A stretch of DNA of 64,000 nt from contig JBAQLU010000202.1 in assembly GCA_049302065.1 (NCBI GenBank), positions 254 through 64,253 of the forward strand. Reading direction: 5' to 3'. The DNA comes from Thermodesulfovibrionales bacterium (GTDB lineage Bacteria > Nitrospirota > Thermodesulfovibrionia > Thermodesulfovibrionales > SM23-35). The notes under the pieces were generated by a model. It was not told where the DNA came from, did no database searches, and saw nothing but the letters and a program-made list of their open reading frames with translations. Shown piece by piece: positions 1 through 16,342 of this stretch (position 1 is its first letter; the number at the start of each line of letters is the position of its first letter). Made by a program: the position numbers and the translations under genes.

Positions 1-114
1 GGTATTTTTGCTATGTGCACCTACAAGCAGAGAGAATCGTTTTATACAGCAATATTGCGAATTCCCGCTTATAATCTTCATTCTTGCAGGGATTCAGGAA
101 GCAAGAAAACCAGT

Positions 115-141
115 AAAAAAGGGCTTGGTTATTCCAAGCCC
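115..141 (-). terminator. Rho-independent terminator downstream of the 177-620 gene
   Basis: GGGCTTGG (121-128) / CCAAGCCC (134-141) hairpin with a 5-nt loop. On the minus strand it is followed by a T6 run (115-120). It lies 36 nt past the stop codon. Confidence 0.6.
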
Positions 142-176
142 CTTCTTATTCGTTAGTAAATAAATAAGGCCTTAAA

Positions 177-620
177 TCAATCTATAGGCTCTATAATACA
201 AGGAACTTTCATCCCTTGAACTGTGTATCTGGTGTTTTCAGTGCGTACTCCTTCACCTGTGAGCATCAATCCTTCGCCTATGGGTTGTAAGAAACCGGAT
301 TCATCTTCGCCACGGGCTATCCATGTCGTCCATCTGGGATTTCCATTAACAAATCCGGGATACCCGCTCGTATTAAACCATCCAGGACCGCCACCGAATA
401 AATAAAGATCATAGGAGGTCTCTGCATTGTCACTATACAATGAACCAGTACCGTCATTGTTAAGACACACTTCCCAGTAATCACTGTCCGTATTGCCATA
501 TTCATCAGTTGCAATAATGTCATAGCAAATCAATTGATCAATTGAACATTTAGCAAATGCCATATTAGTGACTAATAACAAGGCTGCAACTAAAATTGCC
601 AGTCTAACCGCTACTTTCAT
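177..620 (-). CDS. Secreted/periplasmic hypothetical protein
   Basis: Track ORF 177..647. A GGAGAG Shine-Dalgarno 7 nt before the ATG at 620 favours the shorter start. MKVAVRLAILVAALLLVTNMAFA is a classical signal peptide. No family recognised. Confidence 0.6.
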   Translation of the reverse strand: MKVAVRLAILVAALLLVTNMAFAKCSIDQLICYDIIATDEYGNTDSDYWEVCLNNDGTGSLYSDNAETSYDLYLFGGGPGWFNTSGYPGFVNGNPRWTTWIARGEDESGFLQPIGEGLMLTGEGVRTENTRYTVQGMKVPCIIEPID

Positions 621-850
621 TTCTTTACTCTCCTTTCTTTTTTGCAAGATTTATCAAAATTACATAATTTGTGCAATGCACAAAAACTTTGTAAATTAAA
701 GCACACAAGGATGCCTTTGTCAATGAAATAGAATGAAGACCACAGGAAACCTTATCTTATTGATTTCCATTTGTAATGAGGTATTTTAAGGCAGGATTCA
801 AACATCAACATTTCAGGAAGGAGTGTTGCCTAATACTTATGAAAGGTACT

Positions 851-1825
851 CTATTCTTTTCGTTCTCCCATAATGAGAACTGTCTCCGGTAGATACTTTA
901 TAACAATATTCTTAAACCCTGTTTCTGCCAACCAGCGTTTTATCTCTCTGGGACTATAACACCGTCCTTTTTCTGTTCCTACAAGCATGTTTACTGAAAA
1001 TAGTGCGCTATGGGGCGGAGTTGTCCTTGTCTCGTTGATGGGGAATTCCTGAACCACAACCCTGCCACCAGGATTAATAGCTGTTTTACATTTACGAAGG
1101 AGAGCGATGTTCTCTTCTGCGGAAAAGGCATGGAAGATCTGGCTCAACAGAATCAGATCATACCCGGAACCAATGCTGTCAACATGAAAGTCGCCGGCAA
1201 TGAATCTGATCCCTCTCACGCCCTCACGACGGGCGACTTTTTTGGCAATTTTAATTGTCTCAGGAAGGTCAAAGACGGTTGATTTTACCCCTTTCCTTGC
1301 CATGGCAATAGCGTTCGTGCCCGGTCCTCCTCCCAGGTCAAGCATTGTTTTTACACCTTTAAGTCCTAATGCTTTGGATAGACTTTCCGTGCGGAGTACA
1401 GTGAGGTTATGCATCCCCATGATGAATGACTCGTGATCAAAACCACGCCGTGCAGGGCCGCCTCTCCTGACCACTTCATCCAAAGCAGAAAAGTTCTGCC
1501 ACATGGTAGAAGCATGTTTGACGATATCTCCCTGGTAAAGATGGGAACCTTTTACCAGATAGCGATTGCTTACCGGAGCATTCCGGTACCTGCCCATTCT
1601 GCTCTTACTGACGAGTCCGATACCCGTAAGAGCATCAAGCAGTATCTCTGTTGCCCGCAAGTCAATTCTCAGCTTTCTTGCAATCTCCGTTGCAGATGAT
1701 GCCTTTTTTAGGTTGTCAAATATCCTGAGGTTATTTGCTGTTAATATAACCCTTGATGAGATGAATCCCATATAGAGCTTTCTCAGTCCTGCCAAATCAT
1801 CCGGCACCATTTTTATTCCTCCCAT
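851..1825 (-). CDS. Class I SAM-dependent O-methyltransferase with N-terminal winged-helix/dimerisation domain
   Basis: 324-aa ORF. It has the glycine-rich SAM loop DLGGGPGTNAIAMA, followed by FDLPE and AGDFH motifs. The N-terminal ~100 aa resemble the dimerisation domain of Methyltransf_2-type O-methyltransferases. Confidence 0.75.
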   Translation of the reverse strand: MGGIKMVPDDLAGLRKLYMGFISSRVILTANNLRIFDNLKKASSATEIARKLRIDLRATEILLDALTGIGLVSKSRMGRYRNAPVSNRYLVKGSHLYQGDIVKHASTMWQNFSALDEVVRRGGPARRGFDHESFIMGMHNLTVLRTESLSKALGLKGVKTMLDLGGGPGTNAIAMARKGVKSTVFDLPETIKIAKKVARREGVRGIRFIAGDFHVDSIGSGYDLILLSQIFHAFSAEENIALLRKCKTAINPGGRVVVQEFPINETRTTPPHSALFSVNMLVGTEKGRCYSPREIKRWLAETGFKNIVIKYLPETVLIMGERKE

Positions 1826-1919
1826 GTGATCAGTTATCCTTTGAATCCTATTATAAATAATCCGGCACGACGATTCTATAACTCTCAGGGAGATGGCAGA
1901 AATCTTCCTTAAATCTCGC

Positions 1920-1956
1920 TTGACTTAATTATGGGCATATGCCTATAATTAACCAA
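1920..1956 (+). promoter_or_regulatory. Sigma70-type promoter (TTGACT-N18-TATAAT) with an embedded 28-bp palindromic operator; predicted leaderless transcript
   Basis: -35 TTGACT at 1920-1925 and -10 TATAAT at 1944-1949. The ATG at 1956 is 7 nt past the -10 and has no SD. Palindrome TTAATTATGGGC-ATAT-GCCTATAATTAA spans 1925-1952 with 1 mismatch. It is a near copy of the promoter at 10832. Confidence 0.55.
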
Positions 1957-2519
1957 TGCCAAGACCGAAGAAATATAGCTGTATCAAATGCAAACCTGAT
2001 GCTACCTATTTTAAGCCGATAGGCATTATTCATTCCCCGTTCAAGGATGTGCGTGGTATGCCCATCCAGCCGGCAGGCGCCAAGGGTGTTGCGGGAACTA
2101 TAGAAATTGAACCAGACTATATTGATGGCCTCAGAGATATCGAAGGCTTTTCTCATATTATCCTCATTTATCATTTCCACCTCTCCGGCGCATATTCTCT
2201 CTTGGTGAAACCTTTCCTGGATGACACGCTACGCGGTGTTTTTTCGACAAGGGCGCCGAGACGGCCAAATTCTATAGGCGTATCCGTAGTCAGACTGACA
2301 AGGGTGGAGGGGTGCATGCTTTTCATTGAAGATGTGGATATCGCAGATGGTACGCCTCTGCTGGATATAAAGCCTTATGTGCCGGAATTCGATGATAGAA
2401 AAGACGTGCGGACAGGGTGGCTCGCTCACAAGGCAGATAACGTACAATCGGCAAAAGCGGATGAAAGGTTTGGAAGAACAAAAGATACGGTTCAACAGAA
2501 CTCAAATAAAGGAACATGA
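1956..2519 (+). CDS. TsaA/YaeB (TrmO)-family methyltransferase-fold protein carrying a DUF134-like N-terminal 21-aa module
   Basis: Family blocks PIGIIHSPF, GFSHIILIYHFH, RRPNSIGVSVVRL and GTPLLDIKPY. The first 21 aa, MPRPKKYSCIKCKPDATYFKP, mirror MPRPKKFRCVKCKPDTNYFKP of the DUF134 protein at 10866. The stop overlaps the next start (ATGA). Confidence 0.7.
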   Translation: MPRPKKYSCIKCKPDATYFKPIGIIHSPFKDVRGMPIQPAGAKGVAGTIEIEPDYIDGLRDIEGFSHIILIYHFHLSGAYSLLVKPFLDDTLRGVFSTRAPRRPNSIGVSVVRLTRVEGCMLFIEDVDIADGTPLLDIKPYVPEFDDRKDVRTGWLAHKADNVQSAKADERFGRTKDTVQQNSNKGT

Positions 2520-3853
2520 TTCAGTCAATTACGACAAAAATTATTTTGGACAGTATTGCAGACGGGGTGTTTACTGTTGACGGAGATTGGAATATAACCT
2601 CTTTTAACCGGGCTGCCGAGCGAATAACAGGCATAACTTTCCAAAAGGCGATCGGCCAGAAATGCTTTGATGTTTTTCACGCCAATATTTGTCAGACGGC
2701 GTGTGCGTTGCGAGAGACGCTGAAGACCGGCAAAGAGATCATAGACCGGACGGTGAATATCCTTAACCATGAAGGAAAAGTTATTCCGGTCTCCATCAGC
2801 ACCGCTGTCTTGAAAGACGAAAGACGCAACATTATAGGCGGGGTGGAGACATTCAGGGATCTCTCAGCGTTGGAGGCTCTGAAAAAAGAAATCTCACGTC
2901 AATATTCAGTCGATGATATTATCAGCAAGAATCATAAAATCCAGGAGATTTTCGATATCCTTCAGGACATTGCTGAGAGTGAAAGCACTGTCCTGATTCA
3001 TGGAGAAAGCGGCACCGGCAAAGAACTTTTTGCCAGGGCAATCCATAATCTCAGCAGACGGAAAAAGTTCCCGTTTGTCGCAATAAATTGCGGAGCACTG
3101 CCTGACAACCTCCTGGAATCAGAACTCTTTGGATATAAAAAAGGCGCTTTTACCGATGCCAGAAAAGATAAGCCGGGTCGCTTTGCTATTGCTGAAGGTG
3201 GCACTATTTTTTTAGATGAAATCGGGGACCTCCCGCTTTTCCTTCAGGCCAAGCTTCTCCGTGTCCTGCAGGAGAAAGAGTATGAACCCCTGGGCGCTAT
3301 AAGCCCTGTAAAAGCAAATGTGCGTATCATTGCGGCCACAAATAAGAATCTTCAGTCGATGATTACCCAGGAAAAATTCAGAGAAGATCTTTTCTATCGC
3401 CTCAATATCGTAAAATTGGAACTCCCGCCACTTCGGGGCAGGAAAGAGGACATCCCTCTCCTTGTTGAGCACGTGATAAAAAAATTGAACCTGAAAAAAG
3501 GCAGGAATATAACGGGAATCTCGGACAGTGCACTACAGCTTTTTATGACCTATGATTTCCCTGGTAATATCAGGGAGCTTGAAAATCTTTTGGAGCATGC
3601 TTTTGTTATGTGCCGGAGCGGGGAGATCGGAAGCGGGCATCTGCCCGTGGAATTTCGAGATGCGGTAACAGTACCAAAAACCTCCGAAAATAATATCTCG
3701 TTGCGAGGCCGTTTCAAGGAATCCGAAGCAGAAATCGTCAGGGACACGTTAAAGAGGAACCATGGTCACCGTGGTCAAACGGCCAGAGAACTGGGGATAG
3801 ATTCAAGCACGCTCTGGAGGAAAATGAAACGGCTTGGCATAACGGACACGTAA
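2516..3853 (+). CDS. Sigma54-dependent transcriptional activator (PAS - AAA+ - Fis-type HTH)
   Basis: 445 aa. N-terminal PAS domain, Walker A GESGTGKE and Walker B TIFLDEIG. The sigma54-contact loop reads GAFTDA (canonical GAFTGA). C-terminal HTH TARELGIDSSTLWRKMKRLGI. Confidence 0.9.
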   Translation: MIQSITTKIILDSIADGVFTVDGDWNITSFNRAAERITGITFQKAIGQKCFDVFHANICQTACALRETLKTGKEIIDRTVNILNHEGKVIPVSISTAVLKDERRNIIGGVETFRDLSALEALKKEISRQYSVDDIISKNHKIQEIFDILQDIAESESTVLIHGESGTGKELFARAIHNLSRRKKFPFVAINCGALPDNLLESELFGYKKGAFTDARKDKPGRFAIAEGGTIFLDEIGDLPLFLQAKLLRVLQEKEYEPLGAISPVKANVRIIAATNKNLQSMITQEKFREDLFYRLNIVKLELPPLRGRKEDIPLLVEHVIKKLNLKKGRNITGISDSALQLFMTYDFPGNIRELENLLEHAFVMCRSGEIGSGHLPVEFRDAVTVPKTSENNISLRGRFKESEAEIVRDTLKRNHGHRGQTARELGIDSSTLWRKMKRLGITDT

Positions 3854-3860
3854 TAATTTT

Positions 3861-3901
3861 ATATTGCAATCCTGCATTGTCTCTTTGCAAGACATTGCAT
3901 T
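3861..3901. promoter_or_regulatory. Putative enhancer (UAS) for the sigma54 promoter at 3984
   Basis: ATATTGCAAT (3861-3870) plus the imperfect palindrome TTTGCAAG-AC-ATTGCATT (3884-3901). This is the same motif as at 8780-8816. Its centre lies about 93 bp upstream of the -24 GG. Confidence 0.5.
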
Positions 3902-3983
3902 TTAGCAGTATATTACTCAGCTTAAAATTGTTTCGTCAACTTAACCTTTTGATTTAGTTGGCTTATTTCGCTTAATCCCCATC

Positions 3984-3999
3984 TGGTATTTTTTTTGCT
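3984..3999 (+). promoter_or_regulatory. Sigma54 (-24/-12) promoter
   Basis: TGGTAT-TTTTT-TTGCT, with GG-N10-GC spacing exact. Intergenic and oriented toward the mrp/apbC-like gene. The conserved positions match the site at 8898. Confidence 0.6.
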
Positions 4000-4039
4000 T
4001 TATTCGGAGAGATACATATGTGATTCCCTGTATTCCTGT

Positions 4040-4135
4040 CGCAGGGATCCCATTTAGTACCTCCCCCTTGATGGAGAAACGAGGGATAGAGGACCGGTTG
4101 TTCAGTTTTCCCCCTCCTCTATCACCTCCCCTCAA
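4040..4135. repeat. C-run/G-run hairpin-rich repeat in the 5' UTR of the mrp-like gene
   Basis: CCCCC/GGGG-type segments (ctcccccttgatgg..., ttttccccctcctctatcacctcccctcaaggg) related to elements at 5371, 12739 and 61758. Track ORF 3941..4135 (-) is just a translation of this repeat. Confidence 0.35.
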
Positions 4136-4207
4136 GGGCGGTAGTGTATTATCAATATGCCTTGAGCCTGCTGAAGGATATAAAAATAAATAGTAAGGAG
4201 CTATGCA

Positions 4208-5098
4208 ATGGACAACGTTAGTGAAGGAAAAGAAGCCGCGAACATTTGTTCGTCAAAAAAACGTATCAGCAAGGATGATATCGAGGAACTTAAAGAGAAG
4301 CTTATGCTTGAGCAAAACCTTTGCGATGTAGACCATAAGATAATGGTCATGTCAGGTAAAGGCGGAGTAGGCAAGAGTTCTATTGCCGCGAATATCGCTG
4401 TCGGTCTTTCCCTGAAAGGGAAACAGGTCGGACTCATGGACATTGATATCCACGGACCGAGTATCCCGAAGATGGTCGGGCTTGAAGGGACACCGCTGAA
4501 ACAGTCTGAGGAAGGAATGATGCCTGTTGAATACAGCAATAATCTGAAAGTCATGTCTATCGGATTCCTGATCCGCGACAAGAAAGATGCGGTCATATGG
4601 AGGGCGCCGCTCAAGCACAGCATCATCAGGCAGTTTTTGACCGATGTCAGATGGGGAGATCTCGATTATCTTATTATTGATTGCCCGCCTGGGACCGGAG
4701 ACGAACTCATTTCGATAGCCCAGCTCCTTGAAGGAGCAGATGGCGCCGTTATTGTGACCACTCCTCAGGATGTTGCGCTCAACGATGTCAGGAAATCAAT
4801 TTCTTTCTGCCGTCACGTTGAGGTGCCTATTATCGGCGTAATAGAAAATATGAGCGGTTTTGTCTGTCCGCATTGCGGTATGTCTACTGATATTTTCAAA
4901 ACGGGCGGGGGAGAAAAAATGGCTTCGGAAATGGAAGTCCCTTTTTTGGGAAGGATACCGATCGACGCGAAAATAGTCGAACACAGTGATAGCGGAAGAC
5001 CTTTCTTACAATATGTTTCCGACTCTGAAACAGCGAAGGCGTTTGAATCCGTCATAGGCCCTCTTTTAAACCTGAACAAAGAGAAGGAGAGAAAATAA
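4208..5098 (+). CDS. Mrp/NBP35/ApbC-family Fe-S cluster carrier ATPase
   Basis: Deviant Walker A VMSGKGGVGKSS, DCPPGTGDE, and the CPHCG cluster-ligand motif. AAGGAG SD 7 nt upstream. Confidence 0.9.
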   Translation: MDNVSEGKEAANICSSKKRISKDDIEELKEKLMLEQNLCDVDHKIMVMSGKGGVGKSSIAANIAVGLSLKGKQVGLMDIDIHGPSIPKMVGLEGTPLKQSEEGMMPVEYSNNLKVMSIGFLIRDKKDAVIWRAPLKHSIIRQFLTDVRWGDLDYLIIDCPPGTGDELISIAQLLEGADGAVIVTTPQDVALNDVRKSISFCRHVEVPIIGVIENMSGFVCPHCGMSTDIFKTGGGEKMASEMEVPFLGRIPIDAKIVEHSDSGRPFLQYVSDSETAKAFESVIGPLLNLNKEKERK

Positions 5099-5099
5099 A

Positions 5100-5348
5100 G
5101 TGCCGATCTATGAATATCTTTGTGATGACTGCGGCAGGCGATTCGAGATAAACCAGTCGATGCGCGATCTTCCGATTGAAATATGTCCTGAATGCAAGGG
5201 AACTGTACGGAGGATCATTTCAGGAGGAAGCGGCTTTATTTTAAAGAGCCCCGGTTCCGAACCCCCTCTTCAGCCGCGCTGCGGGAAGAGCGAAACCTGC
5301 TGTGGCAGCAAAACACCCTGTGAGACGCCTTCCTGTGAATCCGGATAA
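5100..5348 (+). CDS. FmdB-family zinc-ribbon protein
   Basis: MPIYEYLCDDCGRRFE...CPECKG is the family signature. Cys-rich C-terminal tail. GTG start 1 nt after the mrp stop. Confidence 0.8.
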   Translation: MPIYEYLCDDCGRRFEINQSMRDLPIEICPECKGTVRRIISGGSGFILKSPGSEPPLQPRCGKSETCCGSKTPCETPSCESG

Positions 5349-5370
5349 TGGGATTAAGATAATTACTTTT

Positions 5371-5388
5371 CCCCTCTATCAAGAGGGG
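5371..5388. repeat. CCCCTCT-N4-AGAGGGG hairpin repeat (possible terminator after the FmdB-like gene)
   Basis: Perfect 7-bp stem. The same stem sequence recurs at 61758-61773. Confidence 0.5.
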
Positions 5389-5856
5389 ATTAAGGAGTGT
5401 GTTCCCGGCAGCAGTAGATGCAAGACTTCACCCTGTAAGGAATAAGCTCTTATTACGGCTAACACAAAGAAAGAGAGAATCTGAGGTATTCAAAATGTGT
5501 CTCACTTTCTCCCTAAAGTTGACAGGGCAGACACATCATCCGAAATTTTAAATACACCTGAAAACCCTCAGGTAGCGTGACATGCAACTTGTGCGGTTTT
5601 CCGGCACAAACCGACAGTCGTGCCGAGAACGGCGCCCACAGCATAAACCTCCATTCTCTTTGGCGCGGCGTGGGACGATGCCGTCTTGACACAACAGAAA
5701 ATAATCCTTGTCTTCCATAGGCATAACGAATTATCATTAAGCACTTTTTTGACTCGAAGAGGTCGGATAGACAGTGATAGCCCAAGCCGTTAATTTGATG
5801 AACTTCCTGAAGGGGCCGAAGCAGTTCATTATTCCCATCGTATTCAAGGCGGGTAG

Positions 5857-6545
5857 ATGAAAGAACTTATTCCCGTCGAAATAATCGAGAAAAAATCTAT
5901 CTGATTCGAGGCCACAAGGTCATGCTTGACAGCGATCTTGCCGAACTTTACGGCGTGGAAACGAAGCGACTCAATGAACAGGTTCACAGGAATCTAAAGC
6001 GATTTCCGGATGATTTCATGTTTCAGCTTACAGAGGAAGAAGCGGAATCTCTAAGGTCGCATTTTGCGACCTTAAAAAGCGGCAGGGGAAGACATCGAAA
6101 ATACTTACCCTATGCTTTTACCGAGCAGGGCGTTTCTATGCTCTCAAGTGTGTTGAACAGCGATCTGGCAATTGAGGTAAATGTCCAGATCATACGGACG
6201 TTTGTGAAGCTCCGCGAGATGCTGGAGCTTTTTAATCAATTCAGAGAGCGGGTCTTGAATCTCGATTCTTCCGTAACCGAGGAAATCCTGAAGCTTTATA
6301 TAGCGTACAAATCCTCAACGAACTTTGTTGATGTTGTGCCCCAGAAAAGCAGGTTGAGGCTCTCTATCAATATGCGTTTCAGCGAGATGGACGACCCGAA
6401 GGGTCTGTGCAAGGATGTGACGAATCTTGGCAGCTGGGGTAATGGAGACGTGGAGGACGGCCTCAGTTCAGCGGAGCAACTTGACGATGTAATGTATCTC
6501 GTTACTCAGTCGTTTGAGAAGAATCTGGATAATGAGGGGCAGTGA
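5857..6545 (+). pseudogene. Frameshifted, chimeric ORF6N (KilA-N-like) / DUF5655-like gene remnant
   Basis: ATG at 5857 gives MKELIPVEIIEKK, then a stop. The family sequence continues as IYLIRGHKVMLDSDLAELYGV in the next frame. The break is an A6 run (5890-5895) where A7 would restore the frame. The C-terminal half (YIAYKSSTNFVDVVPQKSRLRLSINM...DPKGL...WGNGD) resembles DUF5655 rather than an ORF6N C-terminus. Confidence 0.7.
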
Positions 6546-6762
6546 GGTTGATGAGAGGGGGAATTAAGTGATTGGAAAATGCAGAATGCAAGAAACAAGA
6601 CTTGACCCCACGCGTGCGTGGTGATAATCGATATAACAAATGTCATTGGAATCTCAGAGGTAAATGCTGAACAATGGGTGAATAGTCTGAAAGAAGCAGG
6701 TAAGCTTAAAGAAAGGCAATATAAGGAGAAAAAATATTATTCATGCCCTTTGGGGCGATAAA

Positions 6763-7512
6763 ATGGGAGGTATGAAGTCTGAAAGGTATGCAATCTTGAA
6801 TATGAAAATAACAGTCATATATGACAATAACTCTTATAAGGCAGGATTAGACGCCTCATGGGGTTTTTCCTGTTTTATAGAGGGAACTGAGAAAACTATA
6901 CTTTTTGATACCGGCAGTAACCCTTTTTTACTTTTGAGGAATATAAAGTGTTTGAAAATCGATCCTGGAGATATTGATTTGATTTTTCTTTCCCATATGC
7001 ATTGGGATCATATAGGTGGATTATATGGAATTATTGAAAATAACCCTGCTGTTACTGTTTTTCTGTTAGAATCTTTTTCCAAACGATATAAAGATGATAT
7101 TAAGAAATTTGGAACAAAAATATTTGAAGCCGGAAAACCTGTTAGAATCTGCAAGGATGTTTTTTCTACCGGTGAATTAGGGAAATCGATAAAAGAGCAA
7201 TCCTTGATTGTCCATACGAACAGAGGTTCAGTAGTGATAACCGGATGTGCGCATCCAGGCATTGTAACAATAATAAAAAAGGCAAAAGACATTATTAAGG
7301 ATGAAATATTATTGGTAATTGGTGGTTTTCATTTAGGAGCCGAAACTAAAATGGAAAAGATTGTCTCAAATATTAGGAAATTGGGTGTCCGATATGTCGG
7401 TCCCTGTCATTGTACAGGAGATAATGCAAAACAATTGTTCCAAAGAGTATATGGTGAAAATTCTATCCATGTAGGCGCAGGAAAAGTAATAAACATAAAT
7501 GATTTGAAATGA
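6763..7512 (+). CDS. MBL-fold metallo-hydrolase
   Basis: SHMHWDHIGG (HxHxDH) with later conserved His/Cys residues. The start is uncertain; MKITVIYDN at 6802 is an alternative. Confidence 0.8.
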   Translation: MGGMKSERYAILNMKITVIYDNNSYKAGLDASWGFSCFIEGTEKTILFDTGSNPFLLLRNIKCLKIDPGDIDLIFLSHMHWDHIGGLYGIIENNPAVTVFLLESFSKRYKDDIKKFGTKIFEAGKPVRICKDVFSTGELGKSIKEQSLIVHTNRGSVVITGCAHPGIVTIIKKAKDIIKDEILLVIGGFHLGAETKMEKIVSNIRKLGVRYVGPCHCTGDNAKQLFQRVYGENSIHVGAGKVININDLK

Positions 7513-7719
7513 AAACCTTGAATGAGATAGAAGATGGTATGAGTAACGGTAATCCTTGACGGTTTAGATGTGAGACAGCATTTTCATATTCTACAAACAA
7601 TCTTTCATAAACCAGAGGAAATAACCGCTTTGGAGCCTATAAGAGATGGATACGGAGAGGGCCTTTTTGTTGTACTTTCTGCTCAAAAAGAAGAAACAAT
7701 TTCAAGGAGGTAGTTCAAG

Positions 7720-8712
7720 TTGGTAAAGGACATCATCACGAAATCGTTAGACAGAAACATGCTCACCAAAGAAGAGATTGCTTTATTATTTAAGGTTCCC
7801 CTGTTCTCTGAAGAATCGGCGATGATCATTGCAGCATCCCGAAAAAAGAGCGAGTCAGCAAGCAGCGGGTTAGCTGAAGTTCATGCACAGGTGGGATTAA
7901 ATATAGCCCCATGTCCCAAGAACTGTGCTTTCTGTTCTTTCGCAGTCAGAAATAAGGTTTTCACTGAAAAGATTGAGATTTCGGTCGATGAAGCTGTTCA
8001 AAAAGCACAGCAGTTCGAAACCGATGGAGCAAATGCTGTTTTTGTTATGAGCACAGCGGATTATCCATTTGAAAAGTTTATCGATATTTCCCAGGAAATC
8101 AGAAAATCTCTTCATTCAGAAACAATACTTGTTGCAAATGTCGGTGATTTCACCAAAGAACAGGCAAGAAAATTGAAAGATACCGGGTTCTCTGGCATTT
8201 ATCATGCTGTTCGACTGGGCGAAGGAAAAGATACGAACATCCAGGTTGAAACAAGGCTGGAGACATTTAGAAATGCAAGAGAAGTCGGTTTGTCATTAGG
8301 AACGTGTGTAGAACCGGTTGGGAATGAACACAGCGTTGAGGAGTTAGTCGAAAAAACGATCATCACCCGTGATGCGAAACCTGTATACAGTGGTTCAGCA
8401 AGACGCATACCCATCCCTAATACCCAAATGGCGGAATACGGCATTGTCAGCGAGGCCAGGATGGCGCATATACTTGCTGTTGTGAGATTGGCGCTTGGAT
8501 ATGATATCCCAGGGAACTGTACTCATGAACCTAATGTCATAGGAGCAGCAGCCGGAGCGAATCTCTTGTGGGCTGAGGCTGGATCTAACCCCCGTGATAC
8601 GGAGAAGGAAACGGAAGGCAAACGTGGCATGACTGTAAGGGATTGTATGAAAGTATTAGAAGAAGCAGAATGGAAGGCGCTACAAGGTCCGTCAAAATTT
8701 TATGGAGCATAG
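7720..8712 (+). CDS. Radical SAM protein (BioB/HydE-like subgroup)
   Basis: CPKNCAFCSF (CxxxCxxC) near residue 65 and a TIM-barrel-length body. TTG start with an AAGGAGG SD 9 nt upstream. Confidence 0.8.
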   Translation: MVKDIITKSLDRNMLTKEEIALLFKVPLFSEESAMIIAASRKKSESASSGLAEVHAQVGLNIAPCPKNCAFCSFAVRNKVFTEKIEISVDEAVQKAQQFETDGANAVFVMSTADYPFEKFIDISQEIRKSLHSETILVANVGDFTKEQARKLKDTGFSGIYHAVRLGEGKDTNIQVETRLETFRNAREVGLSLGTCVEPVGNEHSVEELVEKTIITRDAKPVYSGSARRIPIPNTQMAEYGIVSEARMAHILAVVRLALGYDIPGNCTHEPNVIGAAAGANLLWAEAGSNPRDTEKETEGKRGMTVRDCMKVLEEAEWKALQGPSKFYGA

Positions 8713-8779
8713 ATTCTTTATTACAATAGCTAATCATCTCACCCTTACTTTTTAAATAATCGCACGTCAGGTTTATTGT

Positions 8780-8816
8780 GATATTGCATTCTATATTTGC
8801 AATACATTGCAAATAT
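8780..8816. promoter_or_regulatory. Putative enhancer (UAS): 24-bp perfect palindrome plus a half-site
   Basis: ATATTTGCAAT-AC-ATTGCAAATAT at 8793-8816 (11-2-11, perfect), preceded by the half-site ATATTGCAT (8781-8789). The centre lies about 95 bp upstream of the -24 GG at 8899. Confidence 0.55.
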
Positions 8817-8897
8817 GCAGTAGGTGATTTTTTATCCGCAAACATCCTCTATACGCTAACGTTTTGATTAATCTGCATATTTCAAATTATTCCTTCC

Positions 8898-8913
8898 TGG
8901 TATATTGTTTGCT
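8898..8913 (+). promoter_or_regulatory. Sigma54 (-24/-12) promoter
   Basis: TGGTAT-ATTGT-TTGCT with exact GG-N10-GC spacing, intergenic. The predicted TSS (about 8923-8926) falls almost on the ATG at 8928, so the mRNA would be nearly leaderless. Confidence 0.6.
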
Positions 8914-8927
8914 TTATGTATTTTGTT

Positions 8928-9293
8928 ATGAAAATAGCCATCCCAATATTCGAAAACAGGATTTCTCCACGGTTTGATTGTGCTCCGGGTTTCAGATTAT
9001 GCGAAATGGAAGGAGACAGGATAACGGGTATCCATGAGATATCCTGTGAGGGATGGAATGATATGGACAGGGTTTCCCGATTAAAGGTACTGGGAATTGA
9101 TACCCTTATTTGCGGTGGTATTCCGGATTATCTGCTCAGCGTCCTTGCGAACAGCGGTATCAAGGTTATCCCCTGGGTAGCGGGCGATACCAGCGAGGCA
9201 TTAACCCTTTTTCTCCGGGGGCAATTGAACTCGGGTACGGTCATCTGCCCGGGAAGGAAAAGACGCCGCTGCAAGAGAGGCATAAAGGTTTAG
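8928..9293 (+). CDS. NifX/NifB-C-terminal-family (FeMo-cofactor-binding fold) protein 1
   Basis: MKIAIPIFENRISPRFDCAPGF is a typical N-terminus for the family. The track start at 8916 adds 4 aa and is less likely. Confidence 0.75.
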   Translation: MKIAIPIFENRISPRFDCAPGFRLCEMEGDRITGIHEISCEGWNDMDRVSRLKVLGIDTLICGGIPDYLLSVLANSGIKVIPWVAGDTSEALTLFLRGQLNSGTVICPGRKRRRCKRGIKV

Positions 9294-9352
9294 ATGGATT
9301 TGATTGAGTTGAGGATTAAAACTGTGAAGCAGAAGAAAGAAGGTGGACAGAA

Positions 9353-9721
9353 ATGAAACTCTGTATTAGTTCTACGGGAAGTGGTCTGGAGTCAACGGTT
9401 GACCCCAGATTTGGAAGGTGTCGGTACTTTCTTTTGATTGACACCGAAACGATGAATGTCGAGACTGTGGGAAATCCCGCTTTTATAGCAGGCGGCGGAG
9501 CAGGGATACAGGCTGCCCAGTTGGTAGTTAATAAAGGGGCAAAAGTGGTTCTCACCGGAGATGTCGGACCGAATGCCTTTCAGGCCCTTCAAGCCGGCGG
9601 TGTAAAGATAGTTACAGGCGCTCAGGGTTCGGTCAAAGATGTAATTGAAAGATTTAACAAAGGTGAACTCGGGTATGCCGGAGCCGCTTCAGTTGAATCG
9701 CACGCCGGGATGAGGAGGTGA
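9353..9721 (+). CDS. NifX/NifB-C-terminal-family protein 2
   Basis: MKLCISSTG...VDPRFGRCRYFLLID...VVLTGDVGPNA are typical family blocks. Confidence 0.8.
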   Translation: MKLCISSTGSGLESTVDPRFGRCRYFLLIDTETMNVETVGNPAFIAGGGAGIQAAQLVVNKGAKVVLTGDVGPNAFQALQAGGVKIVTGAQGSVKDVIERFNKGELGYAGAASVESHAGMRR

Positions 9722-9726
9722 AGACT

Positions 9727-9942
9727 ATGCCGAGAGGAACTGGATCAGGATCAACGAATGCAGGAACTGGAATGGGATCGGGTAAGGGAAGGTGTGGAGG
9801 AGGAAGGGGAGGCAGCAGGTCCGGCGGTCCCGGAGGTGAATGCATCTGCCTCTCCTGCGGAGCGACAGCAATCCACCAGGCAGGCACTCCCTGTTATCAG
9901 GTGAAATGCCCCAAGTGTGGGGTAAGTATGGCAAGGAAATAA
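9727..9942 (+). CDS. DUF5320-family small Gly/Cys-rich protein
   Basis: MPRGTGSGSTNAGTGMGSGKGRCGGGRGG, then CICLSCG...CPKCG. GGAGG SD 8 nt upstream of the ATG at 9727. Confidence 0.7.
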   Translation: MPRGTGSGSTNAGTGMGSGKGRCGGGRGGSRSGGPGGECICLSCGATAIHQAGTPCYQVKCPKCGVSMARK

Positions 9943-9956
9943 GGAGACCGTCTTTT

Positions 9957-10835
9957 ATGATTATCTCAATTGCGAGCGGAAAAGGAGGAACGGGCAAGAC
10001 TACCTTAACCGCTGCATTCGCCCATCTTGCCGATAATGCCATGATTGCTGATTGCGACGTTGATGCAGCCGACCTTCATCTTATACTGACACCGGATATC
10101 ATCAGACAGGAGCCATTTTACGGAGGCCAACTGCCTTCTATTGATTATGATCGATGCACCCAGTGCGGGTTATGTGAACAACAATGCCGTTTTGGAGCCA
10201 TCCAGGCTGTAAAGGTCGATCCTGTCTCCTGCGAAGGTTGCGGGGTCTGTGCTTACGTTTGTCCTGAACAGGCCATATCCATGAAGGAAAGACTTTCCGG
10301 CAACTGGTTTTTATCTGAAACAAGAGAAGGCTGGATGGTTCACGCACGGCTGGGAATAGCAGCGGAAAATTCCGGGAAGCTTGTCTCCATGGTCCGTCAG
10401 CAGGCGAAGGAACTGGCTGAAAAGGAGAAGAAGAATCTCGTTATCATTGACGGTCCGCCCGGCATTGGTTGTCCGGTAATAGCCTCAATAGGCGGTGTAA
10501 ACCTTGTTCTTGTTGTGACAGAGCCGACCCTTTCGGGAATCCACGATTTAAAAAGGATTCTCGAAGTAGCAACCCATTTTAATATCCCGGCGATGGTATG
10601 CGTCAATAAATGTGATATCAATGCTGAAAATACCCTCGCCATAGAAGGTTATTGTGCGGGAAAAGGGATTGCTATAGCAGGCAGCATCCCATATGCACCG
10701 GAAGTAACCAAGGCTATGCTGAACGGGCTCTCCGTAGTGGAATATCCCTGTGCTCAAGTGACCGTCGAAGTGAAAAGGATATGGAGAAAGGTTGAAGAGT
10801 ATCTTTTTGCCGAGTCGCATAATCTTTTCGCTTGA
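9957..10835 (+). CDS. MinD/ParA-type P-loop ATPase with inserted 2x[4Fe-4S] ferredoxin domain
   Basis: IASGKGGTGKTT Walker A, plus CTQCGLCEQQC and CEGCGVCAYVCP ferredoxin motifs. The in-frame ATG at 9957 has an AAGGAGA SD. The track extension back to 9840 overlaps the DUF5320 gene. Confidence 0.85.
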   Translation: MIISIASGKGGTGKTTLTAAFAHLADNAMIADCDVDAADLHLILTPDIIRQEPFYGGQLPSIDYDRCTQCGLCEQQCRFGAIQAVKVDPVSCEGCGVCAYVCPEQAISMKERLSGNWFLSETREGWMVHARLGIAAENSGKLVSMVRQQAKELAEKEKKNLVIIDGPPGIGCPVIASIGGVNLVLVVTEPTLSGIHDLKRILEVATHFNIPAMVCVNKCDINAENTLAIEGYCAGKGIAIAGSIPYAPEVTKAMLNGLSVVEYPCAQVTVEVKRIWRKVEEYLFAESHNLFA

Positions 10836-10866
10836 TTTATTATGAGCTTATGCTCATAATAAACAA
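10832..10866 (+). promoter_or_regulatory. Sigma70-type promoter (TTGATT-N17-CATAAT) with an embedded 28-bp palindromic operator; predicted leaderless transcript
   Basis: -35 at 10832-10837 and -10 at 10855-10860. The ATG at 10866 has no SD. Perfect palindrome TTTATTATGAGC-TTAT-GCTCATAATAAA spans 10836-10863. Confidence 0.55.
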
Positions 10867-11156
10867 TGCCTCGGCCAAAAAAATTCAGATGTGTGAAGTG
10901 CAAACCAGATACTAATTATTTCAAACCAAGGGGAATTCCCCTGATAGAACTTGAGGAAGTCTCGATCTCAATGGATGAACTGGAGGCGCTCAGGCTTGCA
11001 GATTATGAAGAATTCTATCATGAAGAAGCCGCTGCAAATATGAAGATATCAAGGCAGACATTCGGAAGAATCTTGAATGCTGCACACAAAAAAGTTGCTG
11101 AATGTCTGTTAAAGGGCAAGGCATTGAAAATAGAGACTCAAAAAAAGGAGGAATAA
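10866..11156 (+). CDS. DUF134-family predicted DNA-binding protein
   Basis: N-terminus MPRPKKFRCVKCKPDTNYFKPRGIP, followed by an HTH-like ELEALRLADYEEFYHEEAAANMKISRQTFGRIL. Confidence 0.8.
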   Translation: MPRPKKFRCVKCKPDTNYFKPRGIPLIELEEVSISMDELEALRLADYEEFYHEEAAANMKISRQTFGRILNAAHKKVAECLLKGKALKIETQKKEE

Positions 11157-11158
11157 AG

Positions 11159-11539
11159 ATGAAAATATGTTTTCCGGTATCAAAAGTTAATGGGATGGAG
11201 AGCGAGGTTTACGGTCATTTCGGATCAGCGCCCGCATTCCTTGTTATCGAGACGGATGCTAACACCATAACAACAATTAATAACAAAGACCAGCATCATG
11301 TACACGGCGCGTGTAATCCAATGAAAGCCCTGAACAATCAGAACGTCGATGCAATCGTAGTTGGCGGAATCGGTGCAGGTGCATTGAGCAAGCTGAATCA
11401 ATTAGGGATTAAGGTTTTTCAGGCAAAGGCGTCAACTATTAAGGAAAATATTGCGATATTAAAGAATCAGAGCCTGCCTGAATTTTCAACATCACACTGT
11501 TGTTCAGGTCATAGCAAAATCGGTGGCTGTGGACATTAA
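11159..11539 (+). CDS. NifX/NifB-C-terminal-family protein 3
   Basis: MKICFPV...VYGHFGSAPAFLVIE...AIVVGGIGAGA. AAGGAGG SD upstream of the in-frame ATG at 11159. Confidence 0.8.
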   Translation: MKICFPVSKVNGMESEVYGHFGSAPAFLVIETDANTITTINNKDQHHVHGACNPMKALNNQNVDAIVVGGIGAGALSKLNQLGIKVFQAKASTIKENIAILKNQSLPEFSTSHCCSGHSKIGGCGH

Positions 11540-11563
11540 AATTTACCTCAGCAACTTTGTTAT

Positions 11564-11626
11564 TCCTGGAAAGCAGGAATCCAGAAAAAAGAAAAAACTG
11601 GATTCCGCATCAAGTGCGGAATGACA
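11564..11626. repeat. Intergenic hairpin repeat of the GGATTCCG...CGGAATGAC family
   Basis: CTGGAaagcaggaaTCCAG, then GGATTCCGCATCAAGTGCGGAATGAC. Related copies at 14572-14652 and 60544-60619. Confidence 0.6.
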
Positions 11627-11684
11627 AACTTGATCATTCATCTGAGCTTTACAGTATTACATAATAAATAAAAAGGAGGATTTT

Positions 11685-12056
11685 ATGGCAAAGAAAAGAA
11701 TTGCAATACTCGCATGCAAAAACATCAAGGGTATCAGTTGCGTAGCCGGCTGTCTGAAATGTTTTAAGGGCATTTCCGAGAAGGCGGGGGAATACGAGCG
11801 CTGGAAGGATTATGATATAGAAGTCATTGGCATGGATGACTGTGGCGGTTGTCCTGGTATCCTCATGCCGAAAGTTGCACTAATGATGGATATGGGTAAA
11901 TTATATGAAAGGGATTTTGATGCTATTCATCTTGGAACTTGTGTTATGAAGGCTACCCAGACTGCAAAGTGCCCCATTGATGTTGAAGATATTAAGAAAA
12001 AGATTGAAACAAAGTTTAAGAAAGAGGTGATCTTCGGCACGCATCCTTATGCGTAG
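11685..12056 (+). CDS. CGGC-domain protein
   Basis: DDCGGCPG motif plus N-terminal Cys residues. AAGGAGG SD. Confidence 0.75.
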   Translation: MAKKRIAILACKNIKGISCVAGCLKCFKGISEKAGEYERWKDYDIEVIGMDDCGGCPGILMPKVALMMDMGKLYERDFDAIHLGTCVMKATQTAKCPIDVEDIKKKIETKFKKEVIFGTHPYA

Positions 12057-12090
12057 CTGATCTGATTAACTTTCCTGGATACTTTAAACA

Positions 12091-12546
12091 ATGAGCATTT
12101 TAGTCTTCGGCATAGGTAACTTACTGCGCTCTGACGATGGAGTGGGTTTGCAGGTAATTGGAGCTCTCGGGGAGGAAAAGTTAGGAGATACTATTGATGT
12201 AATAGAAGGGTCTTCCTGTATCGATATCCTCGATGCATTAAAAGGTTACAGGAGAATCATTATTGTTGATGCGATACAGACCGGAGGTGAGCCTGGTACA
12301 ATCTATAAATTTTCCCTGGAAGATTTTAAAGATAAGCATACGATCCATTCTTACTCAACCCACCTGAATATGGATTTCCCCACTATGCTCGAATTGAGGG
12401 AAAAACTCTTTCCCGGTGAAATACCCTTAGATATCATAGTTATCGCAATAGAGGCAGAGGACATAACAACGATTTCGGATACCTGCACACCAAAGGTTCG
12501 GAAAGCTATACCAGAAGCTGTTGATATGATTAAGGGATTGATATAA
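12091..12546 (+). CDS. Hydrogenase maturation endopeptidase (HyaD/HybD/FrhD family)
   Basis: ILVFGIGNLLRSDDGVG N-terminal signature, IIIVDA and a downstream His. No hydrogenase structural gene in the window. Confidence 0.8.
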   Translation: MSILVFGIGNLLRSDDGVGLQVIGALGEEKLGDTIDVIEGSSCIDILDALKGYRRIIIVDAIQTGGEPGTIYKFSLEDFKDKHTIHSYSTHLNMDFPTMLELREKLFPGEIPLDIIVIAIEAEDITTISDTCTPKVRKAIPEAVDMIKGLI

Positions 12547-14548: not shown

Positions 14549-14571
14549 TGGTAATTCCTTTGCTGTTTTAC

Positions 14572-14652
14572 GTCATTCCGACTTATTCGGAATCTTTTTC
14601 TATATTTCCAGTGTAGCAATGAAGAAGGATTCCGGACAAGCTGGAATGACGG
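14572..14652. repeat. About 80-bp MITE-like repeat bounded by GTCATTCCG ... GGAATGAC
   Basis: GTCATTCCGACTTATTCGGAATC ... GGATTCCGGACAAGCTGGAATGAC. Same architecture as 60544-60619. Confidence 0.6.
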
Positions 14653-14676
14653 CTACACAAGATTTAACAATTCATT

Positions 14677-15870: not shown

Positions 15871-16342
15871 TTACATAACTTACCTTAATATCCATATCTT
15901 TTCGCAATGAGTGATAAACAGAGCAATATTTTTCCTGAGAAAGTGAGATTGCCCGGTCAAGCTTTTTGGGAGTTATGCCTTTGCCTGCAATGCGGATTTT
16001 CATATCAACGCCACTGAAATATTTCGGCGGGACAGGATTTCTCTCTCCGATGGTTTCGATCTCGAATTTTGTTATCTCAACCTTCATCTTCTTCAGAAAT
16101 AAAACTACATCTATGGCGAGGCAACCCGGAATGCTCATCAAAAGGCTGTCAGTCGGGATGCACCCCTCCTTTGCATCAGCATCGAAGTCAATTGCATAAC
16201 CGCGGATCCTTGCAGTGAAGACCAGGTCCTTCTCCCAGGTTAAAATTCCTCTGCTAATATTGGCGACATTTTCCTTGTATCCCTCTCCCTTTAGGGTTTT
16301 GTCCAAACCGGTAAGGGAACCTTCAGCTTCCTTTTCCTGCAT
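15854..16342 (-). CDS. OsmC/Ohr-family peroxiredoxin-like protein
   Basis: 162 aa with the OsmC fold pattern and Cys residues in EGCIPTD, PGCLAIDV and EKYCSVYHSL. Confidence 0.75.
   Translation of the reverse strand: MQEKEAEGSLTGLDKTLKGEGYKENVANISRGILTWEKDLVFTARIRGYAIDFDADAKEGCIPTDSLLMSIPGCLAIDVVLFLKKMKVEITKFEIETIGERNPVPPKYFSGVDMKIRIAGKGITPKKLDRAISLSQEKYCSVYHSLRKDMDIKVSYVIEQNG

Follow-up and report, generated by a model that had tools for sequence, protein, structure and literature searches.

A Promoter, Palindrome and Start Codon Shared by a DUF134 Gene and a TrmO-Like Gene in a Thermodesulfovibrionales Orange-Protein Cluster: a Probable Deletion Scar Behind a Probable DUF134 Operator

Introduction

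Small helix-turn-helix (HTH) repressors that regulate themselves through an operator lying over their own promoter are well represented by LexA, TetR and the ArsR-type proteins, and the genes for lambda cI and for TetR of Tn1721 are leaderless. A comparable layout was studied here in a stretch of 64,000 nucleotides from a Thermodesulfovibrionales bacterium (GenBank assembly GCA_049302065.1, contig JBAQLU010000202.1, positions 254 to 64,253 of the forward strand; hereafter the window, with positions counted from its first letter). In this stretch a unit of about 100 bp, made of a promoter, a palindrome and the first 21 codons of a gene, occurs twice, once at the head of a gene of the DUF134/UPF0251 family and once fused to a gene for a TrmO/TsaA-like protein. 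From a comparison with related genomes, the copy on TrmO most likely represents the 5′ end of a second DUF134 paralogue, the rest of which was lost by an in-frame deletion, and the palindrome is probably the autoregulatory operator of DUF134.

As in the LexA, TetR and ArsR-type circuits, the promoter is a strong one of the sigma-70 type, a two-fold symmetric site covers its spacer and -10 element, and the regulator gene stands first in its operon. The likeness to lambda cI and Tn1721 tetR lies in the start codon of DUF134, which in this clade falls at the predicted transcript start. DUF134 differs from all of these repressors in that its family has no characterised member, in its conserved cysteine-bearing N-terminal arm, and in an HTH that, as modelled, resembles region 4 of sigma factors.

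The genes around the fused copy can be compared with the orange-protein (ORP) cluster of Desulfovibrio vulgaris Hildenborough, with which they share MrpORP, MinD-like/ferredoxin ATPases, NifX-like proteins and a PAS-domain sigma-54 activator (PMC8359166, PMC3897727, PMC6345978, PMC4641369). Both clusters also have two operons preceded by a palindrome and a sigma-54-type promoter each, and an activator gene under a sigma-70 promoter. The activator of D. vulgaris, OrpR (DVU2106), is recognised by a PAS domain with cysteines C52, C61 and C65, an AAA+ domain with the GAFTDA motif and a C-terminal HTH (PMC8359166, PMC4641369), and the sigma-70 promoter of its gene is repressed by OrpR itself (PMC3897727). 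The two loci differ at this promoter: in D. vulgaris the site is OrpR's own GGGCGYRTTTTGCGCCC, whereas here it is a DUF134-type palindrome, and the activator gene lies behind a DUF134 remnant and a TrmO-like gene. In those parts of the orp and OrpR papers that were searched, the term DUF134 is absent, and no TrmO-like cluster member is discussed. A literature search for DUF134/UPF0251, with the founding ORP paper outside its range, returned irrelevant mentions only and nothing on an operator or on a link to orpR.

Compared with typical TrmO/TsaA proteins, the form in the window is short (about 160 aa), is located within an orp/DUF134 cluster, and has 21 foreign N-terminal residues in place of its native eight. 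The TrmO of E. coli is longer and has a C-terminal domain. The fusion resembles other in-frame deletion fusions at microhomology, in which same-strand genes are joined at 4–7 nt of identity, the intervening genes are lost and the upstream expression signals are kept; it would differ from them in that a probably leaderless start makes the in-frame outcome near obligatory.

Results

Two Colinear Copies of a Promoter, Palindrome and Coding Start

In copy A, a sigma-70-type promoter on the forward strand (1920–1949) consists of a -35 element TTGACT (1920–1925), an 18-nt spacer and a -10 element TATAAT (1944–1949). A 12-4-12 palindrome at 1925–1952, TTAATTATGGGC-ATAT-GCCTATAATTAA, covers the spacer and the -10 with a single G/T asymmetry, and its conserved core at 1929–1948 (TTATGGGCATATGCCTATAA) is the probable DUF134 operator. 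The ATG follows at 1956, 6 nt past the -10 and without a Shine-Dalgarno sequence. The promoter of copy B (10832–10860, forward strand) has TTGATT at 10832–10837, which overlaps the stop codon of the MinD/Fer4 gene upstream, a 17-nt spacer and CATAAT at 10855–10860. Its palindrome, TTTATTATGAGC-TTAT-GCTCATAATAAA at 10836–10863, is a perfect 12-4-12 and would be the operator at DUF134's own promoter; the ATG at 10866 stands 5 nt past the -10, likewise without a Shine-Dalgarno sequence. A promoter scan gave 11 of 12 consensus matches with a spacer of 18 for copy A and 9 of 12 with a spacer of 17 for copy B. Both thus show -35 and -10 elements at 16–18 nt spacing with an overlapping two-fold symmetric site, as in repressor-overlapped sigma-70 promoters.

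An earlier reading of this DNA, made from its letters alone (the sequence-only reading), had described these promoter pairs, palindromes and close ATG codons in both regions, and direct reading together with the promoter scan bears it out. It had also taken the two regions for colinear duplicates with matching N-termini, which agrees with the pairwise alignment: window 1920–2018 is colinear with 10832–10928, far above chance. The similarity was scored by +1/-1 local alignment against an empirical background. Copy A scored 48 against the chunk holding copy B, and the 1148 other chunks of the window gave a mean of 8.6 (standard deviation 1.4) and, outside the copy B region, a maximum of 14. The noncoding and the coding parts were each above chance, the upstream 41 nt alone scoring 22 (background maximum 10) and the 63 coding nt alone 28 (background maximum 13). 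Default blastn and blastn-short missed the similarity between the copies because an identity of about 74% is penalised.

The palindrome pattern was found at just two sites of the window, A and B, with about zero expected from shuffles, and a search elsewhere located further sites at DUF134 genes of other genomes. The N-termini encoded by copy A (MPRPKKYSCIKCKPDATYFKP) and copy B (MPRPKKFRCVKCKPDTNYFKP) are identical at 16 of 21 residues. The copies differ at 14 codons, 9 of which are synonymous, and the duplication is therefore old, not recent.

The Fused TrmO Gene and Its Junction

The fused open reading frame (ORF) spans 1956–2519 on the forward strand (187 aa) and has an ATGA overlap with the next gene. 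Its 21 DUF134-derived codons (MPRPKKYSCIKCKPDATYFKP, 1956–2018) start at the ATG 6 nt past the -10, and the TrmO/TsaA-homologous body occupies 2019–2519. Residues 22–187 matched the TrmO/TsaA family models PF01980 and TIGR00104 above the curated cut-offs: the Pfam domain TrmO_N covered residues 34–146 with 137.3 bits (cut-off 26.8), and the NCBIfam model TIGR00104 gave 126.4 bits (cut-off 93.25). The fused ORF had no other Pfam match than TrmO_N and none to DUF134 at E <= 0.01. Only residues 1–24 aligned to DUF134 in tblastn and the HTH is absent, so the fused protein carries a fragment of DUF134 and is not a member of the family. TrmO/TsaA proteins form a family of SAM-dependent methyltransferases acting on t6A37 in tRNA (m6t6A37), an activity that is only a possible one for this form in its orp/DUF134 context. 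AlphaFold2 returned a poor model of the fused protein (38 close homologues, mean pLDDT 46.8), with residues 1–19 at low confidence.

Across the junction the window codons read ...GAT GCT ACC TAT TTT AAG CCG / ATA GGC ATT ATT CAT TCC... The four nucleotides CCG-A at 2016–2019 are common to DUF134 codon 21 plus the next base and to TrmO codon 8 plus the next base. To the left of the junction the sequence is that of the DUF134 5′ end of relatives, and to the right it is that of their TrmO from codon 9 (loci L006, L010 and L014; related loci and proteins are denoted by L and P numbers). The microhomology comprises AAGCCGA, or Y-(F)-K-P in the protein, with CCGA common to both parents; L010 has AAGCCAA. 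In L006 coordinates the stretch missing at the junction measures 669 nt, and the fused gene corresponds to the arrangement of the relatives once DUF134 from codon 22 onwards, NifX and the first eight TrmO codons are taken away.

Other TrmO homologues were also checked for the DUF134 motif, and it proved not to be general. Ordinary homologues start M-x-E-I-R-Y-K-P-IGIIHSPF, and five alleles alone, those of the window and of proteins P0003 to P0006, carry the DUF134 N-terminus on TrmO. In these, YF(K/R)P directly before IGIIHSPF mimics the native Y(K/R)P. The same in-frame junction was present in independent assemblies (L001, L002/L003 and L004; proteins P0003 and P0005), the sources of the fused junctions being Logan SRR28063028, SRR22388160 and SRR22388168, JGI 3300056873 and 3300075153, and ENA. 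The junction pattern TAYTTYARRCCNATHGGNATHATHCAYTC had no match in the collection of metagenome contigs; L004 contains it and evidently lies outside that collection.

The region from TrmO to orpR is a mosaic. Window 2015–2200 is 92–94% identical to L002/L004 and 70–83% to L005, 2240–2870 is 88–100% identical to L005 (96–100% up to about 2550) and 52–88% to L002, and 2870–3500 is L002-like again (92–98%).

Relatives With an Unfused TrmO Gene

The order operator-DUF134-NifX-TrmO-activator, the last being a PAS-domain sigma-54 enhancer-binding protein, was observed in L006. Its DUF134 begins MSRPRKCRIVQCRPDATYFKPRGIP, its TrmO begins MEEIRYRPIGVIHSPF, and this TrmO is unfused and 86% identical to that of the window. 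L010 has operator-DUF134-NifX-CGGC-TrmO-activator-Mrp, L014 has operator-DUF134-NifX-TrmO-CGGC, and L116 has operator-DUF134-NifX-activator and no TrmO. Compared with the N-terminus of DUF134 in L014, the fused peptide of the window was identical at 20 of 21 residues and that of P0005 at all 21; the window's own DUF134 shares just 16 of 21 residues with the fused peptide of the window.

Two copies of the DUF134 unit are also found elsewhere: two operator-DUF134-NifX-CGGC units, L016 and L017, share one contig and are 27 kb apart. The arrangement of copy B, MinD/Fer4 followed by operator-DUF134-NifX-CGGC, recurs in L012 and L019. L207, a longer version of L005, keeps DUF134-NifX upstream of TrmO and has CGGC directly after MinD/Fer4; in the comparison of L207 8821–10999 with window 9840–12056 it is the reciprocal of the window, with no DUF134-NifX between MinD/Fer4 and CGGC. 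Judged from these gene orders, the loss of DUF134 copies in L207 and in the window looks reciprocal. In L130 and L007, the O-methyltransferase gene and flank of copy A are joined to a full DUF134-NifX-CGGC-protease series, and the 8.9-kb orp block is absent. Neither transposase nor terminal repeats flank the module in the ORF list of the window.

According to the deletion model, the lost paralogue would once have headed a DUF134-NifX-(CGGC)-TrmO-orpR operon. A deletion between ...TAT TTT AAG CCG A... (DUF134 codons 18–21) and ...TAY AAR CCG A... (TrmO codons 6–8) would have removed the DUF134 HTH, NifX, with or without CGGC, and TrmO's own start, leaving TrmO in frame behind the DUF134 start codon. 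On a leaderless transcript, promoter, operator and start codon would form one inseparable unit and, with the ribosome-binding site of TrmO deleted, TrmO would be translated only as an in-frame fusion. Since relatives already have TrmO, in the same orientation, 3′ of a DUF134 gene that starts in this way, TrmO and the activator were most likely already under this promoter, so that no new regulatory link would have been created. The sequence-only reading had the module recombined onto a different enzyme, and this part of it is not supported: in L006, L010 and L014 TrmO is already found 3′ of such a DUF134 gene.

The locus is generally unstable among relatives. The O-methyltransferase of L007 has a large internal deletion as well; L143 (2595–2860) shows the operator, a decayed DUF134 pseudogene with an ACG start and frameshifts, and then the activator; and in L140 (3340–3500) the operator lies between divergent TrmO and activator genes. 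Large deletions were also seen in L016 (5211–5645), where activator residues 1–36 are joined to Mrp residues 184–296, and in L123 (5056–5416), where CGGC is followed by only the last 40 or so residues of Mrp.

Changes at Invariant Residues of the Fused Peptide

Conservation within the DUF134 family is highest over the first 25 residues, and M1, R3, P4, R8, P14, Y18, F19, K20 and P21 are each at least 95% conserved in 82 DUF134 sequences. The five fused alleles carried 7 substitutions at 45 family-invariant positions, vs 1 in 738 in the 82 DUF134 genes (Fisher p = 1e-8). These were R8S in the window, R3K and R8G in P0003, P4T in P0004, and R3G, P14T and K20R in P0006. P0006 also has C9S, and the CxxC pair was kept in four of the five alleles. 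The promoter and operator of the fused gene were identical in L002 and differed in L004 by one symmetric A>G / T>C pair. The DNA element is unchanged while invariant residues change, which argues that selection holds the DNA element and not the peptide. The fused peptide is thus probably not functional in the sense in which it serves DUF134, and these counts do not support a functional leader peptide. The 21 residues would be a slowly decaying passenger behind a promoter and operator under selection.

The Palindrome at DUF134 Genes of Other Phyla

DUF134 genes of Thermodesulfovibrionia normally carry this unit of about 100 bp at their 5′ end. To place it more widely, 80 DUF134 loci were fetched from species-representative genomes spanning Thermodesulfovibrionia/Nitrospirota, Smithella/Syntrophaceae, Omnitrophota, Planctomycetia, Spirochaetota and Desulfobacterales. 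The core TTATGrGCATATGCyTATAA was found at the DUF134 5′ ends of these 80 loci and, in nearly all of them, TTGAC(a/t) and then TTATG[GA]GCATATGC[CT]TATAAT stood just 5′ of the gene. The GCATATGC centre is near-invariant across phyla, and a variant, ATTATTrGCATATGCyAATAAT, occurs in Omnitrophota and Planctomycetia. A -35-like hexamer (TTGA[C/T/G] or TTGT[A/C]) was observed at the same position in 14 of 15 Thermodesulfovibrionia loci and in 52 of 65 DUF134 loci of other phyla.

In about 600 kb of loci, 86 core sites with at most two mismatches were counted, and all were located at a DUF134 5′ end or at the fused remnant, with the exception of one site in L085 between DUF134 and NifX. When metagenome contigs were scanned without bias for the core, 80 loci matched, and a DUF134 gene recognised by a hidden Markov model directly followed the site in 47 of them. 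The operator accompanied DUF134 genes with or without an activator gene nearby. As far as these comparisons reach, the palindrome is a mark of DUF134 genes across several bacterial phyla.

Among 125 operator-protein pairs, residue 68 was the protein column most associated with position 5 of the half-site. Arg68 was paired with G at this position in 108 of 111 cases and Asn68 with T in 11 of 13, the T/Asn68 pairs coming mostly from Omnitrophota, Planctomycetia and Desulfobacterales. Arginine-guanine and asparagine-adenine contacts are the usual pairings. The codon of residue 68 lies at window 11067–11069, and the residue falls within helix 63–83 of the predicted structure, taken as the recognition helix. 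This covariation suggests a direct base contact. Co-occurrence and covariation taken together indicate that the palindrome is probably the DUF134 autoregulatory operator, and the protein encoded at 10866–11156 is likely to be the repressor acting on both palindromes.

Several genes other than DUF134 were seen behind the operator in metagenome contigs. The same promoter and palindrome precede ARMT1-like/DUF89 genes in L124 (minus strand, site 2832), L133 (site 284) and L163 (minus strand, site 3151), Zn-ribbon proteins with Gly/Arg-rich tails in L121 and L147, a NifX-like gene in L100 and an OsmC-like gene in L112. These genes hint at a small regulon, and some of the matches may be due to chance.

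The DUF134 Protein and Its Gene

The full-length DUF134/UPF0251 gene of the window (10866–11156, forward strand) encodes 96 aa, with a Pfam DUF134 score of 84.2 bits (cut-off 27). The match to PF02001 covered profile positions 6–91 of 98, including the HTH core, and places the protein in the family. Pfam agrees with the sequence-only reading that one copy continues into the HTH of DUF134 and the other into TrmO/TsaA. The protein is composed of an N-terminal arm, MPRPKK..CxxC..YFKPRGIP, and a sigma-region-4-like HTH. In the AlphaFold2 model residues 30–90 were confident and residues 1–29 had low pLDDT. The best Foldseek matches of this model in the Protein Data Bank (PDB) were the -35-binding domains of sigma region 4, e.g., 2h27_D and 5fgm, with an rmsd of 0.7–1.0 Å over about 50 residues at weak E-values of 0.05–0.1, and a PDB sequence search with DUF134 had no match at E <= 1.

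The next gene, at 11159–11539 on the forward strand, is NifX/orange-protein-like (Nitro_FeMo-Co by Pfam), the usual partner 3′ of DUF134. The DUF134-NifX pair recurs in relatives, and copy B (10832–10928) heads an intact DUF134-NifX operon in the window. In L105 (1852–2350) a DUF134 protein with a C-terminal Zn-ribbon extension was noted (Zn_ribbon_8, E = 1e-5), and this ribbon resembles the stand-alone Zn-ribbon proteins behind the operator in L121 and L147.

A Leaderless Layout in Thermodesulfovibrionia

All 15 Thermodesulfovibrionia DUF134 genes, that of the window included, start 5–8 nt past the -10 without a Shine-Dalgarno sequence, and their start codons lie 12–15 nt past the core. In other phyla the start lies 17–38 nt past the core, and a Shine-Dalgarno-like motif was present in the leader of 59 of 65 genes. 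In terms of sequence, the leaderless layout is a conserved, clade-specific trait; the leaderless start proposed in the sequence-only reading is upheld as such a layout, and the transcript of the fused TrmO gene is probably leaderless too.

A similar start was noted at the second sigma-54-like promoter of the window (8897–8930), where the expected transcript start lies a few nt before ATG 8928 (MKIAIPIF...), again with no Shine-Dalgarno sequence; the ATG at 8916 given in the ORF list would precede the transcribed region. It may be that many genes of this organism have leaderless or near-leaderless starts.

The Orange-Protein Cluster

The gene that overlaps the end of the fused TrmO gene (2516–3853, forward strand) encodes an OrpR-like sigma-54 enhancer-binding protein, with the Pfam domains PAS, Sigma54_activat (AAA+) and HTH_8, and co-transcription with the fused TrmO gene is predicted. 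Its translation contains a C-x8-C-x3-C triad in the PAS domain (...QKCFDVFHANICQTAC...) and GAFTDA (...KKGAFTDARK...), the hallmarks of an OrpR-type activator. The gene at 4208–5098 is MrpORP according to NCBIfam, and the cluster also holds MinD/ferredoxin ATPases and NifX-like proteins (Pfam). On these family assignments it is an orange-protein cluster.

The sequence TTTGCAAnACATTGCA occurs at 3884 and 8796, three matches when the reverse-strand one at 8798 is counted, with 0.28 expected. These sites are near-identical 16-nt imperfect palindromes, TTTGCAAGACATTGCA and TTTGCAATACATTGCA, at 3884–3899 and 8796–8811. About 85–100 nt 3′ of TTTGCAAnACATTGCA, sigma-54 -24/-12-like elements CTGGTAT-N5-TTGCTTT were found at 3983–4001 and 8897–8915 by reading the intergenic regions; the strict sigma-54 consensus TGGCAC-N5-TTGCW gave no match with one mismatch allowed. 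The first pair precedes the MrpORP gene and the second a NifX-NifX-DUF5320-like-MinD/Fer4 operon. Two orp operons would thus each have an upstream activator site, with a motif unlike the D. vulgaris site, and a -24/-12 promoter, and the two pairs are probably OrpR-type activator sites with their promoters.

Two further ORFs of the cluster were noted. A 207-aa ORF at 5922–6545 (MLDSDLAELYGVETKRLNEQ...) had no NCBIfam match and lies in a stretch where L002 does not align (L002 3658–6196 vs window 5341–6624); it may be a strain-variable insert in the orp cluster. A 74-aa Gly-rich ORF at 9718–9942, with two CxxC pairs and no Pfam match, overlaps the start of the annotated MinD/Fer4 ORF, and the gene at the matching position in L207 has a weak DUF5320 match. 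The ORP operon is reported to include a small Fe-S protein, to which this ORF could correspond.

Discussion

The proposed circuit would start from the DUF134 protein, whose sigma-region-4-like HTH is assumed to act as a dimer from the two-fold symmetry of the site alone. It would bind TTATGrGC-ATAT-GCyyATAA and block the -10, repressing its own operon, and the surviving paralogue would also repress the TrmO-orpR operon in trans. In the next step, OrpR with sigma-54 would drive transcription of both orp-like operons in the cluster. In this locus the DUF134-type palindrome thus probably also gates the orpR-like gene of the ORP cluster.

We consider it probable that a deletion scar behind a DUF134 operator, taken as a combined explanation, accounts for copy A. 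We are more confident that the fused 5′ end stems from DUF134, and less confident of the exact path of rearrangement and of the control of operator A in trans. Several points weigh against this explanation. The peptide has persisted in five alleles with about 20% protein divergence, and with CxxC in four of the five, so that some residual role is possible. Operators A and B differ at several core positions, and control of operator A by the paralogue is an assumption. DUF134 is proposed as the binder from co-occurrence and covariation, and the Arg/Asn covariation comes from few clades and may partly reflect shared ancestry. No relative had both full DUF134 copies in exactly the positions of the window. 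The arrangement in L130 and L007 would fit an insertion, a repeat-mediated deletion or an ancestral state, and L207, L130, L007, L016 and L017, taken together, are compatible with more than a single route from one of the three types of arrangement to another. Finally, the TrmO-orpR mosaic could reflect recombination between lineages or co-assembly of strains.

Two other explanations grant the peptide or the unit as a whole a role of its own. It is rather unlikely that a portable promoter-operator-leader-peptide module was copied from DUF134 onto an unrelated enzyme, placing TrmO newly under DUF134 control with a functional peptide. The two copies 8.9 kb apart in one genome would agree with this, as would the retained cysteine pair and the junction in L130/L007 of the copy A flank to a full DUF134 without the TrmO block, for which a duplicative rearrangement is possible. 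However, TrmO and the activator already stand 3′ of DUF134 in L006, L010 and L014, which makes the regulatory link older than the fusion; the fused N-terminus is nearer to the upstream DUF134 copies (20–21 of 21) than to that of the window (16 of 21); constraint is relaxed at family-invariant residues; and no transposase or terminal repeats flank the unit. We give still less weight to an adaptive fusion, in which the peptide was kept because it works on TrmO, as a metal or Fe-S ligand through CxxC or as an arm docking to ORP/NifX proteins. Its persistence through that divergence, the share of synonymous codon differences between the window copies (9 of 14) and the mimicry of the native Y(K/R)P before IGIIHSPF would speak for such a role, but much of the synonymous divergence is probably older than the fusion, the changes strike R3, P4, R8, C9, P14 and K20, which are almost never altered in DUF134 genes, P0006 has lost one Cys of the pair, and the N-terminal arm is of low confidence in both AlphaFold2 models.

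The palindrome could also act as a nucleic-acid hairpin (RNA or cruciform) or as the site of another regulator, such as OrpR or a global factor, but we regard this as very doubtful. Paired changes keep the symmetry at position 3/26 (A/T in window copy A, G/C in L004, T/A in window copy B), an RNA would accommodate the G/T asymmetry as a wobble pair, and the folding is strong (z as low as -7); for palindrome B as single-stranded DNA, z was -6.6 to -7.1, a value that restates its symmetry. Against a hairpin, the right arm is the predicted -10, which puts the palindrome ahead of the transcribed region, conservation across phyla is one of sequence as well as of pairing, and Rfam had no match in window 1–16000 at E <= 1; a terminator reading was rejected, as no T-run follows the palindrome. 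OrpR as the regulator finds a precedent in D. vulgaris, where it represses its own sigma-70 promoter (PMC3897727), but the site tracks DUF134 genes both with and without a neighbouring activator gene, and the TTTGCAAnACATTGCA sites at the sigma-54 promoters suit OrpR better. The covariation with DUF134 residue 68 tells against a hairpin and another regulator alike. An origin of the fusion in faulty assembly or gene calling, the sequence being from a metagenome-assembled genome, appears extremely improbable: the region is indeed a mosaic of two lineages, and one gene caller placed the start at Met35 (P0001), but the same in-frame junction recurs in independent assemblies from different samples and sources, the fused alleles differ from one another in DNA sequence, and between 1956 and the essential IGIIHSPF strand there is no further start codon in frame.

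The deletion scar and DUF134 operator can be extended to a wider scheme, which we hold to be unlikely as a whole. DUF134 would be the missing sigma-70-level switch of the anaerobe-specific ORP system, one of a cross-phylum set of small repressors whose Cys-bearing arm senses metal or Fe-S and which, by binding TTATGrGCATATGCyTATAA, gate orpR, NifX-like, DUF5320-like and ARMT1-like genes, and the arm on the fused TrmO would still bind that ligand or partner and so couple the enzyme to the signal.

The fusion itself is an ordinary evolutionary scar, and an autoregulated HTH repressor with its operator over its own -10 is a well-known type of circuit. Two points appear to be new: the uncharacterised DUF134/UPF0251 family is assigned a precise operator that recurs across phyla, and this operator is linked to orpR. 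The assignment would place a sharply defined motif at the genes of a family whose small proteins are widespread in anaerobes, and would connect DUF134 with the regulation of the ORP cluster and of its redox-sensing activator OrpR. A probably leaderless start would couple promoter, operator and start codon, and this unit may thereby survive a deletion as an in-frame fusion.

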